From: Escherichia phage vb_EcoM_bov9_1
Length of the DNA stretch: 64,000 bases
Reading direction: 5' to 3' (one strand)
Sequence record: MT884006.2
In this document: positions 22,655 to 27,243 of the stretch, in pieces
Layout of the letters: every line of letters begins with the position of its first letter
Numbering within the stretch: the stretch's first letter is position 1
Position numbers and translations under genes: made by a program
Notes under the pieces: model-generated
Told to the model about the DNA's origin: nothing
What the model saw: only the letters and a program-made list of their open reading frames with translations
Databases searched by the model: none

Positions 22655-22657
22655 CAA

Positions 22658-22677
22658 TGGGGACCTTTCGGTCCCCA
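22658..22677 (+). terminator. Terminator hairpin after gene 54
   Basis: TGGGGACC-TTTC-GGTCCCCA followed by TATTTTTATTT. Confidence 0.55.
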
Positions 22678-22682
22678 TATTT

Positions 22683-22973
22683 TTATTTACGGAATGAAAT
22701 GAAAGCAGAAACTGAAGCAACTAAACTGTCTTCAATATAAACTTCAATTTTTACCGGAGCTTCTGACTCAAATTTACCTGTTACTACACCCTGAAAAATG
22801 CTTTCAGTCTGTTCTGGCTTTGAAAAATTTTCAGAAGGGAAAATTCCGAACTTTTTATCTGTTCCAAAAATTTTAATAAATTCATCGTAAACTGCTTCAT
22901 TAAAAGCGTTATCAGCAGGAATAACGCCTTCAACTACAAGTTCTTGACCTAAAAAGCGCAAAGAAGATTTCAT
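22683..22973 (-). CDS. Hypothetical protein, 96 aa (T4 alt.-x position)
   Basis: ORF preceded by conserved early-promoter cassette and GAGGA RBS. Confidence 0.55.
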   Translation of the reverse strand: MKSSLRFLGQELVVEGVIPADNAFNEAVYDEFIKIFGTDKKFGIFPSENFSKPEQTESIFQGVVTGKFESEAPVKIEVYIEDSLVASVSAFISFRK

Positions 22974-22980
22974 TTTGTGT

Positions 22981-23034
22981 TCCTCATGTTATGTCAGTAA
23001 GACTACTATAACACAACATAAGGAACTTGTAAAC
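22981..23034 (-). promoter_or_regulatory. Early promoter cassette (GTTTACA -35, 17-nt spacer, TATAGT -10, GAGGA RBS), copy A
   Basis: sigma70-like elements on minus strand; 51/54 nt identical to copy at 37956-38009. Confidence 0.55.
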
Positions 23035-25091
23035 TACATTTTGAACTTTTTAGACATTCCGTTGATGTTAACCAAAGAAGCTAAGATTTGAGAAACTTCG
23101 TTTTCCTCTTCTTTTGATTCTTCTACAAGGAATTGATTAAATCCAGCCATTGGACGAACTTCACCAGTTTCCATCAGATGGTCGCCATCATATACTGATT
23201 CTTCTAATTGTTCAGAAGGAGGAACGATTGTACCTTCGATTAGATACTTGTTATAAGCAGTTTCTTTCATCATGTACGTACTTACTTTATTAATCTTCAG
23301 TAAAATTCCACGCGGCAAAATAACTTCAGCTTCGGATGGAAATCCTGATAAATGACCTGGAACGATAACTTTAACTCGTTCAGCTCCTTTAATTACCATA
23401 CCTACATTAGTTTCAGCGTCTTCATTCGCATATGTAGAATGACTACCCATATGCATTAAATCTTCAGCATCAACTGAACCTTCTCCTTCACCAGAAAATA
23501 CTGCTCCGGAATCATCTAAGGCCATATAATTTTTACCATATTCACCGAAGATATTTGGCTTGAGTGAAGTAGATACAAAGTTCTTGAAATAGAACATTTT
23601 ATTTTCTATATTATGACGTAAAGTTTTAAAGGTAACTTCTTGCCCACGATAAAGAGTAGTTCCTGGAGGAAGAACTGAACCTTTAGAAAATGCAGAATCC
23701 AGCGTCTCAATATGTTTAATAGCTCGTTCCATATATTCTTCACGGGTAGAATCAGGTTTACCTAGAAGGAACGAGTTCATTTCAACATATGAATCTGCGC
23801 AATAATCTTCAATTACATCAGACTCAGCCTGAGTTAATCCTTTTGGAGTTACTTCAGTGCTTGCATATTCATATGCCTGAGCAGCAGATTCATCAATTAA
23901 TTTATAAATTCCATTCATTACAAATTGAATAATAGCTGTCTTTTCATCTGGTGTAGCTTTAGAACCTTTAACTAAATCATTGACAATTTTCTTAATAACA
24001 TCAAAGCTATTAGAAATATTAATGTCAGCAAGATCGCTTAAAATTTTATCAGTTTTATAATCAAAGAATTCTTTATTCTTTAAATATTCTTGAGAACCTT
24101 GATATGTTATATCGCTCTGCAGCTTGATAGATGGATCGCGTAAACGTGCATGGGCCAATGCAATATGATTTCGGAAGCTTTCGAGTTCATAATCACTAGA
24201 TTTAAAACGAGAAGCACTTCTCATACCACCGATAGCTCCTTTGCTAAAGTTTGAACCAACCTGAATAACGCCAGAGTTCATTGGTCCTTCTGCTTTATAT
24301 ACCGGAACTTTAGATTCAAACTCTTGATATTTCTTAGCAGCGAAGCTATCACCCTGAAGTGAAGCATCAACAGTAGAATATTGAGCTTGTGCTGCTAATC
24401 GACGACTAATTTTAGTTTTCTGAATAACAGCTTGATCCGTGCGCTTATCATTTTCTAAAGCAATAGAAGCAGCAACAGCAACAGCTTTAGGAACAGCATT
24501 ACCTGTTTTAACGTCTACATAAACATCACCAACCTTTGATTCAACTTTTGTGAATAACTCGGTTGAAATAGGAGGTACACCTGGAATGTCTTCTAAATTG
24601 GCATTTTTACGGTAAACCATAATATATGCGTACTTTTTATCATAATCCCAGATTTCCTTTAAAAGAACATATCGACCTGCTCCTTTAGTACGTACTAAAC
24701 GGTCAGCAATAACTTGCATTTGCCGAGCAGCGCCATTTGTTTTACTTTTTAGTACGCGGAATAAGCATGCATCAATTTTATACTGTTTCATTGTTTGAAG
24801 AGCAGTATCAAAAACAGCATTAATGACGCCAATTGGATTTCCACCCAAGTTTTTAAGCTTAACTAATGATAGTTTCTCATTAACACCTATCATTACGATA
24901 TGCATCATTTTGTCGCCTGGCTTAACGTTTTTATTCGTATCACCGCCAGAGGTGTATGTACAAAATCTAAATCCAGGAAGCACGCTTTCTTCACCTGCTT
25001 GAATAGCAAAAATTTGAGGTATTTTATGCTTAGGATTTAAGTTAACAACCGGCGCCGAAGCGCCGTCAAATAATTCTGTAATAAGTTCCAT
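23034..25091 (-). CDS. Alt-family mono-ADP-ribosyltransferase paralog (685 aa)
   Basis: N-terminal about 230 aa near-identical to adjacent Alt; C-terminal ART signature R (LYRGQ), STS (FVSTSL), ExE (SEAEVILPRG). Confidence 0.8.
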   Translation of the reverse strand: MELITELFDGASAPVVNLNPKHKIPQIFAIQAGEESVLPGFRFCTYTSGGDTNKNVKPGDKMMHIVMIGVNEKLSLVKLKNLGGNPIGVINAVFDTALQTMKQYKIDACLFRVLKSKTNGAARQMQVIADRLVRTKGAGRYVLLKEIWDYDKKYAYIMVYRKNANLEDIPGVPPISTELFTKVESKVGDVYVDVKTGNAVPKAVAVAASIALENDKRTDQAVIQKTKISRRLAAQAQYSTVDASLQGDSFAAKKYQEFESKVPVYKAEGPMNSGVIQVGSNFSKGAIGGMRSASRFKSSDYELESFRNHIALAHARLRDPSIKLQSDITYQGSQEYLKNKEFFDYKTDKILSDLADINISNSFDVIKKIVNDLVKGSKATPDEKTAIIQFVMNGIYKLIDESAAQAYEYASTEVTPKGLTQAESDVIEDYCADSYVEMNSFLLGKPDSTREEYMERAIKHIETLDSAFSKGSVLPPGTTLYRGQEVTFKTLRHNIENKMFYFKNFVSTSLKPNIFGEYGKNYMALDDSGAVFSGEGEGSVDAEDLMHMGSHSTYANEDAETNVGMVIKGAERVKVIVPGHLSGFPSEAEVILPRGILLKINKVSTYMMKETAYNKYLIEGTIVPPSEQLEESVYDGDHLMETGEVRPMAGFNQFLVEESKEEENEVSQILASLVNINGMSKKFKM

Positions 25092-25094
25092 GAT

Positions 25095-27188
25095 TTATCC
25101 TTGAACGAACTTGTAAGGCATGTTTGTAATATCTATGCAAGACGCAATAATTCCAAGAGATGATTCTACTTTCTGTTTAATATTTGATGAAACAAATGAT
25201 GCAAAGTCAACTCTGTCTTCTATTTCAATATCACCTGTCATTGCAGCCAATTCACCAGTTTCCATTAAATGGTCTCCATCATAGATTACCGATTCGGTGA
25301 GCTCTTCCGTGGTCATAACTTCAGCTTGAATGAGTTTTGTATTATTAGATGTTGTTCCGTCATTATTAGAAGCATCGGTTATTTTATTAACTTTGACCAT
25401 CAATCCACGCGGTAGAATAACTTCAGCTTCTGTTGCTATTCCGAGACTTCCTGGATATACAACATTAACTTTATGAGCTCCATCAATTGCCCATCCTATT
25501 TGAACTTTAACATATTCAGGATTTTCTTTATACGCTCTTATTTCGTTTGGATTAATAGTTATTCCTTCTTCATTTTTATCAACTGTTAATTCATTGCGAG
25601 CTTCTGGTTCTAAAAGACCAATACCAGCATGTGTGATTCCAAAACGTCCAAAAATGATAGGAGTTAAAGAAGTAGATACAAAATTTCTGAAGTAGAACAC
25701 TTTATTTTTAACTAACGCTTCATATATAGGAGCAGTCATACTTTGAGCACGATAAACTGTAATGCCTTCTGGTATACGGTCACCATTTTCAAAAGCTGAA
25801 TCTAAGTTATTTATAGCAGATTCAATTTCTTTTTCACTCATTACATCGTATCGTTCTGGATTGTAACGACCTAAAAGAAGATTATTGATGTCAGTATATC
25901 CTGATCCACAATACTCTCTAATGCCGCGCTTTTGCGATGGAGTATATTTAGAACCATCACGTGCAATGGTAATATCAATCATTGGACCTGCACCAATTCC
26001 AGAAAAGCTATAAATCATTCGTTTGAGGAATTTAGTTTTTGCTGCGTTCCAGGAATTTTTAGTTATTTCTTCCCAGACTTCATCTGGCTGCCCTTTACGA
26101 GTTTTATTATGTTTATCAAGCCAATTATCTTTATATTCTTCAAATAATTGATTAACAGCTGCTGCGTATTTCTCTAAACATTTTATTGAAGTAGTTGGTT
26201 CATTTTTAATCGCATTAAGAATTACATCTTTAATTTTTTCAGAAACTTCATTAACCTCACTTTTTAAAAAGAATTTATAGTCATAGTGAAGTTCATCTGC
26301 GGTTCCTTCGGCAATAATTTTTGCTGCCTTAGTTTTAGAAGCTAATGAATTAATTCCAAGCTTCATTTCTTCTGCTTCGGGAATTAAAGGAGCTGTAGCA
26401 GGTTTATTGAAATTAGCTGCGGTAGATTCATATTTCTGGAATAATTCGCTTTCAAATCTAGAAGATTCTAATGACTGACTTTGTGCAATTGCTCTACGGG
26501 AAATTTTAACTTTAACGATAACAGCTTGGTCAGAGCGTTTATCATTTTCTTGTGCAATAGATGCTGCAATTGCCTCATTTTTAGTTACTTGAGCTCCAGT
26601 ATCTTTATTGATATAAACATCGCCGACTTTCGATTCAACCTTAGTAAAGAGCTCGGTACTAATTTCAGGAACTCCTGGAATGTCTTCTAGTGATACATTT
26701 TTGCGATGTATAAGAATATATGCGTACTTTTTATCATAATCCCAGAGTTCCTTAAGAAGGACGTATCTGCCACCTGAACGACTACGGATAAGTCTATCAG
26801 CAATAACTTGAATTTGTCGAGCTTGACCAGCAGTTTTAGACTTAAGAATACGAAGCATACAGGCATCAATTTTATACTGACGCATCGTCTGCATTGCAAC
26901 AGTAAAAACTGAATTGATGTAATTAATTGGGCTTGGACCGAGACCTTTTAATTTAGCAATTGAACCTTTAGCAGTTAATGTAAAAGGAACAATATGCATC
27001 ATTTTATCGCCCATTTTTAAATCGCGATTAGTATCACCTCCAGATGTATAGGTACATAAACGAAAGCCTGGTTGTTCAATTGCATCATCAACATGAACTG
27101 AAAAAATTTGTGGTATTTTCTTCTTTGGATTTAAGTTTGTAATCGGAAGAGTAGTATCTTCGTCAAATAATTCTGTAATAAGTTCCAT
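25095..27188 (-). CDS. alt: Alt ADP-ribosyltransferase (697 aa), capsid-packaged internal protein
   Basis: ART motifs VYRAQ, FVSTSL, TEAEVILPRG; N-terminus MELITELFD...; late promoter TATAAATA at 27213-27220; position next to gene 30. Confidence 0.8.
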   Translation of the reverse strand: MELITELFDEDTTLPITNLNPKKKIPQIFSVHVDDAIEQPGFRLCTYTSGGDTNRDLKMGDKMMHIVPFTLTAKGSIAKLKGLGPSPINYINSVFTVAMQTMRQYKIDACMLRILKSKTAGQARQIQVIADRLIRSRSGGRYVLLKELWDYDKKYAYILIHRKNVSLEDIPGVPEISTELFTKVESKVGDVYINKDTGAQVTKNEAIAASIAQENDKRSDQAVIVKVKISRRAIAQSQSLESSRFESELFQKYESTAANFNKPATAPLIPEAEEMKLGINSLASKTKAAKIIAEGTADELHYDYKFFLKSEVNEVSEKIKDVILNAIKNEPTTSIKCLEKYAAAVNQLFEEYKDNWLDKHNKTRKGQPDEVWEEITKNSWNAAKTKFLKRMIYSFSGIGAGPMIDITIARDGSKYTPSQKRGIREYCGSGYTDINNLLLGRYNPERYDVMSEKEIESAINNLDSAFENGDRIPEGITVYRAQSMTAPIYEALVKNKVFYFRNFVSTSLTPIIFGRFGITHAGIGLLEPEARNELTVDKNEEGITINPNEIRAYKENPEYVKVQIGWAIDGAHKVNVVYPGSLGIATEAEVILPRGLMVKVNKITDASNNDGTTSNNTKLIQAEVMTTEELTESVIYDGDHLMETGELAAMTGDIEIEDRVDFASFVSSNIKQKVESSLGIIASCIDITNMPYKFVQG

Positions 27189-27212
27189 GTTATCCTCTCT
27201 AGTGTTTATTCT

Positions 27213-27220
27213 ATTTATAA
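27213..27220 (-). promoter_or_regulatory. Late promoter (minus strand TATAAATA) for alt
   Basis: Plus-strand TATTTATA 25 nt upstream of alt start 27188. Confidence 0.55.
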
Positions 27221-27225
27221 AATTA

Positions 27226-27243
27226 AAGGCCCGAAGGCCTTTA
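27226..27243 (-). terminator. Terminator hairpin ending the gene 30 operon
   Basis: AAAGGCC-CGAA-GGCCTTT immediately after stop of 61-aa ORF. Confidence 0.5.

Follow-up and report, generated by a model that had tools for sequence, protein, structure and literature searches.

Organization of the alt locus

We analyzed two adjacent minus-strand genes, here called Alt1 and Alt2, which code for ADP-ribosyltransferases (ARTs) of the Alt family and lie in a 64,000-nt stretch of DNA, hereafter the window, from Escherichia phage vb_EcoM_bov9_1 (sequence record MT884006.2). A sequence-only reading of the window had described two open reading frames (ORFs) of 697 and 685 aa, both beginning with MELITELFD and separated by 3 nt; the coordinates are exact, and precisely three nucleotides, ATC, separate the stop codon of Alt1 from the ATG of Alt2 (Table 1). 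The locus is syntenic with those of T4, T2 and T6, being placed between DNA ligase (gene 30)/alt.1 on one side and alt.-3/gene 54 on the other.

Table 1. Coordinates of the genes, protein regions and sequence signals of the alt locus in the window.
Feature	Position	Strand	Remarks
Hairpin AAAGGCC-TTCG-GGCCTTT	27225..27242	-	GC-rich; directly past the alt.1 stop; read from sequence
T4-type late promoter consensus TATAAATA	27212..27219	-	24 nt upstream of the Alt1 ATG
Alt1 Shine-Dalgarno GAGAGGA	27193..27199	-	Read from sequence
Alt1 (upstream gene)	25095..27188	-	697 aa; positional orthologue of T4 alt, T2/T6-type allele
Alt1 propeptide, aa 1-6	27171-27188	-	
Alt1 N-domain, aa 7-239	26472-27170	-	
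Alt1 helical middle, aa 240-410	25959-26471	-	
Alt1 ART domain, aa 411-632	25293-25958	-	R480, S505-T-S507, E587/E589
Alt1 acidic C-tail, aa 633-697	25098-25292	-	
Second perfect TATAAATA, in Alt1 coding sequence	25808..25815	-	Codons A-I-N-N; ~715 nt upstream of the Alt2 start
Alt2 Shine-Dalgarno AAGGA	25098..25102	-	Within the last Alt1 codons
Alt1/Alt2 spacer ATC	25092-25094		3 nt
Alt2 (downstream gene)	23034..25091	-	685 aa; paralogue mostly deleted in T4
Alt2 propeptide, aa 1-6	25074-25091	-	
Alt2 N-domain, aa 7-238	24378-25073	-	
Alt2 helical middle, aa 239-410	23862-24377	-	
Alt2 ART domain, aa 411-631	23199-23861	-	R482, S507-T-S509, E587/E589
Alt2 acidic C-tail, aa 632-685	23037-23198	-	
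CTAAAAAGT, upstream copy	24744..24752	-	Codons V-L-K-S; left end-point of the T4 deletion
CTAAAAAGT, downstream copy	23045..23053	-	Codons S-K-K-F near the Alt2 C-terminus; right end-point of the T4 deletion
Sigma-70-like promoter TTTACA, 17-nt spacer, TG-TATAGT	23005..23033	-	Alt2/alt.-3 intergenic; 10/12 matches, extended -10
alt.-3 homologue	22683..22973	-	96 aa; PHROG 1739; last gene of the minus-strand block
Bidirectional terminator hairpin	22657..22678	both	Between alt.-3 and the converging gene 54; 9-bp stem, 6 GC pairs

The two-gene alt locus is the ordinary, already annotated state of Tequatrovirus and is already known. The window is 100% identical to the Tequatrovirus Escherichia phage vb_EcoM_bov10K1 (MT884007.2), in which both genes are labelled "hypothetical protein". 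Altogether, 543 phage records match the alt region, and the catalytic half of Alt2 is nearly full-length (at least 80% of the Alt2-specific query) in 401 of about 540 related phage records, T2 and T6 included, with 93-100% DNA identity. The same two genes are found in T2 (XUQ82852/XUQ82853), T6 (AXN58233/AXN58232), AR1, UFV-AREG1 (annotated as alt_1/alt_2) and hundreds more Tequatroviruses; in these relatives the pair consists of a protein of 697 or 682-684 aa followed by one of 685 aa, with the same 3-nt spacing and 95-100% protein identity, and no difference of substance from that of the window. T2 and T6 both carry the 697 + 685 aa combination, and Alt1 is 95-100% identical to their upstream alt in every region except the C-tail (93%). 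The pair is often annotated in relatives as alt_1/alt_2 or "Alt-like ... (x2)", and alt duplications in T4-like phages were noted by Nolan et al. (2006; PMC1524935) and Jin et al. (2014; PMC4177764).

The sequence-only reading had also placed both genes behind one late promoter. This is the case: the consensus TATAAATA precedes Alt1 and is kept at the same site in T4, T2, T6, AR1, pSs-1, PYps11T, EO1, sutha, Elenatom and PST, that is, in every Tequatrovirus locus examined, while a motif scan and sequence inspection revealed no TATAAATA, no other promoter and no terminator hairpin between Alt1 and Alt2. One late transcript would thus run from this promoter through Alt1, Alt2 and probably alt.-3, and each of the two proteins would be translated from its own Shine-Dalgarno sequence. 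In T4, the alt transcript and protein appear late (PMC9697503).

A second, perfect copy of the promoter consensus is found inside the Alt1 coding sequence. It is limited to some carriers of the T2/T6-type Alt1 allele (T2, T6, EO1 and bov9_1); sutha and the carriers of the T4-type allele do not have it. This copy could be an accessory late promoter for Alt2 or could occur there by chance; as it lies within codons and is present in some allele carriers only, a role as dedicated Alt2 promoter was left as a possibility. Upstream of the late promoter, the hairpin that follows the alt.1 stop codon looks like a terminator, which would shield the alt genes from early and middle transcription coming from upstream. 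It is missing from the list of the consensus terminator scan because its T-run is interrupted; a predicted terminator upstream of alt has been described in 5 of 6 T4-like genomes (Nolan et al., 2006; PMC1524935).

Family assignment, catalytic residues and processing sites

Both proteins match PHROG 802 ("Alt-like RNA polymerase ADP-ribosyltransferase") over their full length (E = 4.5e-257 and 4.9e-272), which bears out their earlier assignment to the Alt family. Pfam PF03496 (ADPrib_exo_Tox) is also matched by both above the gathering score (Alt2, E = 1.8e-20; Alt1, E = 9.3e-38). The N-terminal region corresponds to PF26846 (Tevenvirinae_ADPRT), as known from the precomputed domains of close homologue clusters; for instance, the 98%-identical protein cluster P0007 carries both PF26846 and PF03496.

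The catalytic signature R-S-E, reported as intact in both ORFs, is indeed complete, and neither copy has lost catalytic residues. Alt2 has R482 (in LYRGQ), S507-T-S509 (FVSTS, 505-509) and E587-A-E589 (EAEVILPRG), and Alt1 has R480 (VYRAQ), S505-T-S507 (FVSTS, 503-507) and E587-A-E589 (EAEVILPRG). The E-x-E motif is typical of arginine-specific ARTs (C2/C3-like ARTs), and from this motif alone we infer an arginine-directed, NAD-dependent transferase activity. The second Glu of the motif aligns in both proteins with E577 of T4 Alt, the mutation of which to Ala abolishes activity (numbering from the MM start; PMC11404850). As for the start codon, Alt1 of the window has a single ATG (AACATGGAA, 27186-27191, minus strand), while T4, T2, T6 and most relatives have ATGATGGAA; the choice between single and double ATG is why T4 Alt residues are numbered in two ways in published work (E576 vs. 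E577; propeptide of 6 vs. 7 residues).

The AlphaFold2 (AF2) model of Alt2, with a mean predicted local distance difference test score (pLDDT) of 75, comprises an alpha/beta N-domain (~12-227), a disordered linker (228-240), a confident helical region (241-470), the ART core (470-628) and a low-confidence tail (629-685). In Foldseek searches, the modelled ART domain matches Vis, C3bot, CDTa, VIP2 and iota-Ia (probability 1.0, E from 1e-7 to 1e-4, target TM-score ~0.6, up to 0.67), in agreement with an ART fold, in which a helical N-terminal subdomain precedes the beta-sandwich core. Searching the PDB by sequence revealed no solved Alt structure, with no match for Alt2 and weak CdtA/iota Ia matches alone for Alt1, and no solved structural homologue of the Alt N-domain was found.

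T4 Alt is built into the prohead core in ~40 copies and is cut by gp21 after ITE-6 and after LTE-619; the propeptides thus documented, of 6 residues at the N-terminus and 63 residues at the C-terminus, have roles that were described as an open question (PMC5694885). The gp21-type site ITE-6 is identical in Alt1, Alt2 and T4 Alt. At the other end, an L-x-E site (LEE-631 in Alt2, LTE-632 in Alt1) matches the mapped LTE-619 of T4 and, in both proteins, precedes a conserved S-V-(I)-YDGDHLMETGE block. Both Alt2 cut-site motifs sit in disordered segments of the AF2 model (pLDDT < 50). The predicted precursors of ~76 and ~78 kDa would yield mature products of 69.1 and 70.1 kDa, and these are therefore expected to nearly co-migrate on gels. 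The computed isoelectric points are basic for the N-domains (~9.6) and acidic for the tails (4.2-4.6).

Divergence between Alt1 and Alt2

The two proteins align over their full length (BLASTP, E = 4e-165) with 42% identity. The earlier description of a shared N-terminal part followed by diverged halves is confirmed by pairwise alignment: over residues 1-238 the identity is 67%, dropping to 19% in the middle region (239-410); the ART domain (411-634) has 33% and the tail 36%, with a renewed rise around the S-V-(I)-YDGDHLMETGE block of the C-terminal tail. On the other hand, the ~230-aa N-terminal parts, although homologous, are not "near-identical" as had been proposed: the ~238 N-terminal residues are 67% identical at both the protein and the DNA level, with a synonymous divergence (dS) of 1.37. 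These values indicate that the duplication is old, and a recent gene conversion between the two N-domains was rejected on the same grounds.

Conservation within the ART domain is lowest in the stretch that joins S-T-S to E-x-E, at 20% identity; C3-like ARTs have their PN and ARTT loops for substrate recognition there. Given the divergence in this putative recognition-loop stretch, the suggestion that Alt1 and Alt2 have different target specificities is plausible.

The 685-codon frame of Alt2 is intact in all seven phages examined in detail, and its catalytic and protease-site residues are invariant. In these phages, Alt2 as a whole has a ratio of non-synonymous to synonymous substitution rates (dN/dS) of 0.046, its N-domain one of 0.022 and its ART domain one of 0.041; for Alt1, the ratio is 0.061 for the whole gene and 0.008 for the N-domain. 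Such strong purifying selection and conservation indicate that both genes are functional.

T4 is a natural deletion mutant of the second gene

Whether T4 has both copies had been left as a question. The comparison with T4 reveals that it does not: T4 has alt and a deleted, frameshifted remnant of the second gene, namely alt.-1 (NP_049810, 61 aa) and alt.-2 (NP_049809, 67 aa), which GenBank describes as "an old duplication of the first part of gene alt". Together, these two ORFs are orthologous to codons 1 to ~115 of Alt2, with a DNA sequence nearly identical to positions 25100-24740 of the window, and a 1-nt deletion splits their frame. Further on, T4 continues at window position ~23053 directly after ~24744, and the 1,699-bp deletion thus seen has its ends exactly at two copies of a 9-bp direct repeat, CTAAAAAGT. 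The same junction is present in 91 records, comprising T4 strains and independent isolates. The coincidence of the end-points with the repeats indicates that the T4 deletion is mediated by microhomology between the two copies of CTAAAAAGT. As the full gene predominates and the junction bears the signature of a deletion, T4 has lost most of a complete second alt gene, and alt.-1/alt.-2 are, from their sequence, better read as the deletion remnant of a full gene than as a partial duplication.

Constant and variable modules of the alt genes

Other phages display further states of the locus. Yersinia phage PST has a single alt gene coding for 686 aa (locus L011, 4887-6947), a clean chimera that switches from the Alt1 to the Alt2 type between residues ~99 and ~103. 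With the Alt2-type catalytic half as its sole one, PST mirrors the situation in T4, and its gene is what would be expected from an unequal crossover involving the two N-domain repeats. Phage sutha has Alt1 and, after a deletion, a remnant consisting of the last 38 codons of Alt2 (L005, 5001-5117). In Elenatom, a frameshift, possibly a sequencing error, divides Alt2 into ORFs of 544 and 140 aa (L006, 4501-6544). Finally, the Dhakavirus Salmonella phage vB_SalD_ABTNLS3 has three tandem alt-like genes of 631, 693 and 707 aa (L012, 2231-8343). Compared with Alt1, the middle gene has an identity of 93% in the ART domain but of 46% in the N-domain, and the flanking genes are at 58-70%, which points to a recent exchange of the ART module between genera. 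Taken together, the states found in PST, sutha, T4 and ABTNLS3 imply that the copy number of the alt array varies from 1 to 3 and that either catalytic half is dispensable.

Variation is also found between alleles of Alt1, of which there are at least two: the T4-type (682-684 aa, E-M-E) and the T2/T6-type (697 aa, E-A-E), to which bov9_1 belongs. The two types are 99.6-100% identical in the N-domain, 32-34% in the middle region and 62% in the ART domain. Alt2, on the other hand, is nearly monomorphic, with 95-100% protein identity in each region. The extreme conservation of the N-domain fits the earlier proposal that the N-terminus is a capsid-targeting region, which is plausible.

The Alt N-domain family is small: an exhaustive HMMER scan of 1.84 billion representatives identified 69 clusters, superseding a word-index search with the N-domain as query that had given 6 matches. 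The domain is always located at residues 1 to ~240, in proteins that are mostly 600-712 aa long. An ART domain is also present in 57 of the 59 longer members scanned, Alt2 itself counted. The two proteins without an ART match are P0189 (485 aa) and P0190 (541 aa), and their C-terminal parts have no match in Pfam, PHROG or the PDB; in some proteins, the Alt N-domain may thus be fused to non-ART modules. P0190 is the product of the second of two tandem genes on a metagenome scaffold of the European Nucleotide Archive (L013, 1439-4809). Both genes of this scaffold have the Alt N-domain (PF26846); the first has a weak ART match, and the ~370-aa C-terminal part of P0190 belongs to no matched family.

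We also compared the AF2 model of Alt2 residues 1-240 (24372-25091, minus strand) with viral predicted structures using Foldseek. Besides Alt homologues, the search returned weaker matches (E from 1e-9 to 1e-4, TM-score ~0.4-0.55, ~14% identity, aligned positions not shown) to proteins from unrelated jumbo phages of Dickeya, Erwinia, Shigella (MK-13), Vibrio and Agrobacterium; these proteins are long and uncharacterised, and some carry annotations of zeta-toxin, cytidine deaminase or ParB/Srx domains. These weak matches between models hint, as a lead only, at a delivery module that is wider than the ART family.

The region downstream of Alt2

Early transcription of alt.-3 probably starts from the sigma-70-like promoter located between Alt2 and this gene. 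No hairpin was detected between Alt2 and alt.-3 by terminator scan and sequence inspection; late transcripts, therefore, probably read through alt.-3. T4 has been found to escape the CmdTAC anti-phage system in one way only, by mutations that extend the C-terminus of Alt.-3 (PMC11618068). Finally, tRNA and Rfam scans of the whole window found nothing.

Functional interpretation of the tandem pair

We consider it fairly probable (roughly 70%) that Alt1 and Alt2 are two functional paralogous Alt mono-ADP-ribosyltransferases, both packaged and injected, which differ in their host targets and together constitute the normal Tequatrovirus locus. Each precursor would have the same layout, namely a 6-residue propeptide ending in I-T-E, a basic N-domain (PF26846), a helical middle, a C3/VIP2-class ART with R-S-ExE, an L-x-E site and, last, an acidic tail ~55-65 residues long. 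If T4 Alt is taken as the model, both precursors would enter the prohead core by means of their common, phage-facing parts and would be trimmed by gp21 after E6 and after E631 (Alt2) or E632 (Alt1), to ~69-70 kDa; both enzymes would then be injected with the DNA, leading to ADP-ribosylation of host arginines before any phage gene is expressed. The N-domain would represent the constant, phage-facing module, probably serving packaging or ejection, and the catalytic module the variable, host-facing part, so that the two enzymes most likely modify different sets of host proteins.

Some points weigh against this interpretation. Either gene has been lost in nature, as seen in T4 and 90 other records, in sutha, in the Elenatom frameshift and in the PST chimera; it follows that neither is essential and that their functions may overlap. 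Furthermore, the ART domain of Alt1 is 62% identical to that of the studied T4 enzyme, and even for Alt1 the target Arg265 of RNA polymerase alpha is extrapolated. Our literature search found no virion proteomics of a Tequatrovirus with two alt genes, no functional work on the second Alt paralogue and no direct evidence that Alt2 is made, packaged, cleaved or active; a Klebsiella phage study in which a single ART was detected is not informative for the Alt pair (PMC13119998).

Alternatively, Alt2 could be a redundant dosage duplicate that does the same job as Alt1, acting on RNA polymerase alpha and the same secondary targets, and that is kept because it raises or buffers the amount of injected enzyme. 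The architecture, the processing motifs and the E-x-E motif common to both proteins would agree with this explanation, as would the loss of one or the other catalytic half in natural isolates (the T4-type deletion of 91 records, sutha and the PST chimera). Nevertheless, we regard it as unlikely: ART domains with 33% identity, falling to 20% between S-T-S and E-x-E, are not what a mere duplicate would be expected to have, there is no sign of gene conversion between the copies, and each paralogue has stayed tightly conserved (dN/dS ~0.05) since an old duplication (dS 1.37), which suggests distinct roles, as mere redundancy would more likely have ended in decay or homogenisation.

A quite improbable explanation is that Alt2 is less a transcription modifier than an injected counter-defence effector, directed mainly against a host toxin or immunity protein, comparable to the action of T4 Alt on MazF, and that its presence tracks the defence repertoires of the hosts. 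Reports credit T4 Alt with inactivating MazF and with ADP-ribosylating many proteins other than RNA polymerase (Depping 2005 and Alawneh 2016, as cited in PMC5512222, PMC2988021 and PMC9697503). Moreover, the exchange of the ART module between phage genera and an alt copy number varying from 1 to 3 are both typical of arms-race loci, and the adjoining alt.-3 is the T4 escape locus from CmdTAC (PMC11618068). However, an Alt2 that is nearly monomorphic (93-100% in 401 records), next to a polymorphic Alt1, would be unusual for a fast arms-race effector.

Lastly, that Alt2 is decaying or non-functional, or is expressed but not packaged, with the loss in T4 showing the direction of the lineage, is very improbable: T4 grows well on laboratory hosts without Alt2, and independent losses or disruptions occurred in T4-type phages, sutha and Elenatom, but the catalytic half is nearly full-length in 401 records, the frame is intact in 7 of 7 phages, dN/dS is 0.046 overall and 0.041 in the ART domain with invariant catalytic and protease-site residues, and Alt2 has its own Shine-Dalgarno sequence and shares ITE-6 and LxE with T4 Alt, which is packaged.

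Beyond the interpretation that Alt1 and Alt2 are two injected enzymes with differing targets, we tentatively put forward, as a possibility with less than even odds, that the alt locus is a polymorphic-effector cassette. A nearly invariant N-module, peculiar to these phages, would serve packaging and ejection, catalytic modules would be swapped between paralogues, alleles and genera, and Alt2 would be injected and have targets unlike those of T4 Alt, possibly in counter-defence. That Alt2 was never studied would then be explained by its natural deletion from the model phage T4.

As a genome feature, the pair adds little, being annotated in hundreds of records and present in the literature since 2006. 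Its relevance lies instead in the fact that T4, the reference for all Alt biochemistry, is without the second enzyme and has a different catalytic allele of the first. Because T4 differs in both alt genes, what is known of Alt is not simply transferable to T2, T6 or therapeutic Tequatroviruses, and both enzymes of the common T2/T6-type pair appear to be uncharacterised. In addition, the split between a constant N-domain and a variable ART offers a handle on how a large protein enters and leaves a T4-type head.

Comparison with known systems

The closest characterised system is T4 Alt (NP_049811, 682 aa), a head-packaged and injected NAD+:arginine mono-ADP-ribosyltransferase that has the same locus, late promoter and domain order as Alt1 and shares with it ITE-6, the LTE motif and R / S-T-S / E-x-E. 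Alt1 is identical to it at 99.6% of positions in the N-domain, 32% in the middle region and 62% in the ART domain, while Alt2 is ~42% identical overall to T4-type Alt proteins and 33% identical to T4 Alt in the ART domain. T4 Alt has E-M-E where both Alt1 and Alt2 have E-A-E. Injected with the DNA, T4 Alt ADP-ribosylates Arg265 of one RNA polymerase alpha subunit as well as other host proteins, and boosts some early promoters (PMC2988021). Considering the ART identities of 62% (Alt1) and 33% (Alt2), the Arg265 target cannot be assumed for either protein of the window.

Tandem Alt paralogues beside baseplate genes are also found outside Tequatrovirus, as in 44RR (ORF187c/188c), RB49 (ORF183c), JS98, Bp7 and the Acinetobacter phages Ac42 and ZZ1 (PMC1524935, PMC4177764). 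These resemble the window pair in their arrangement but belong to other genera, with a copy number of 1-3 and with split genes in ZZ1. Within T4 itself, ModA and ModB are paralogous R-S-E ARTs of the same phage group, and ModA also modifies Arg265 of RNA polymerase alpha (PMC2988021); unlike Alt, however, they are small, early and not packaged, and are without the PF26846 N-domain and the propeptides (PMC5512222, PMC2988021). Their genes are located elsewhere than in the region analyzed.

Finally, Alt shares the ART fold and the R-S-ExE active-site motifs with the bacterial mono-ARTs C3 exoenzyme, Vis, VIP2, iota-Ia and CDTa, and Iyer et al. (2017) placed it in the R-S-E-2 clade (PMC5512222). 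It differs from the C3/VIP2-type toxins in that its N-terminal domain is not an ART-like adaptor, and in that delivery occurs by head packaging and DNA ejection rather than by secretion or through a binary-toxin pore.

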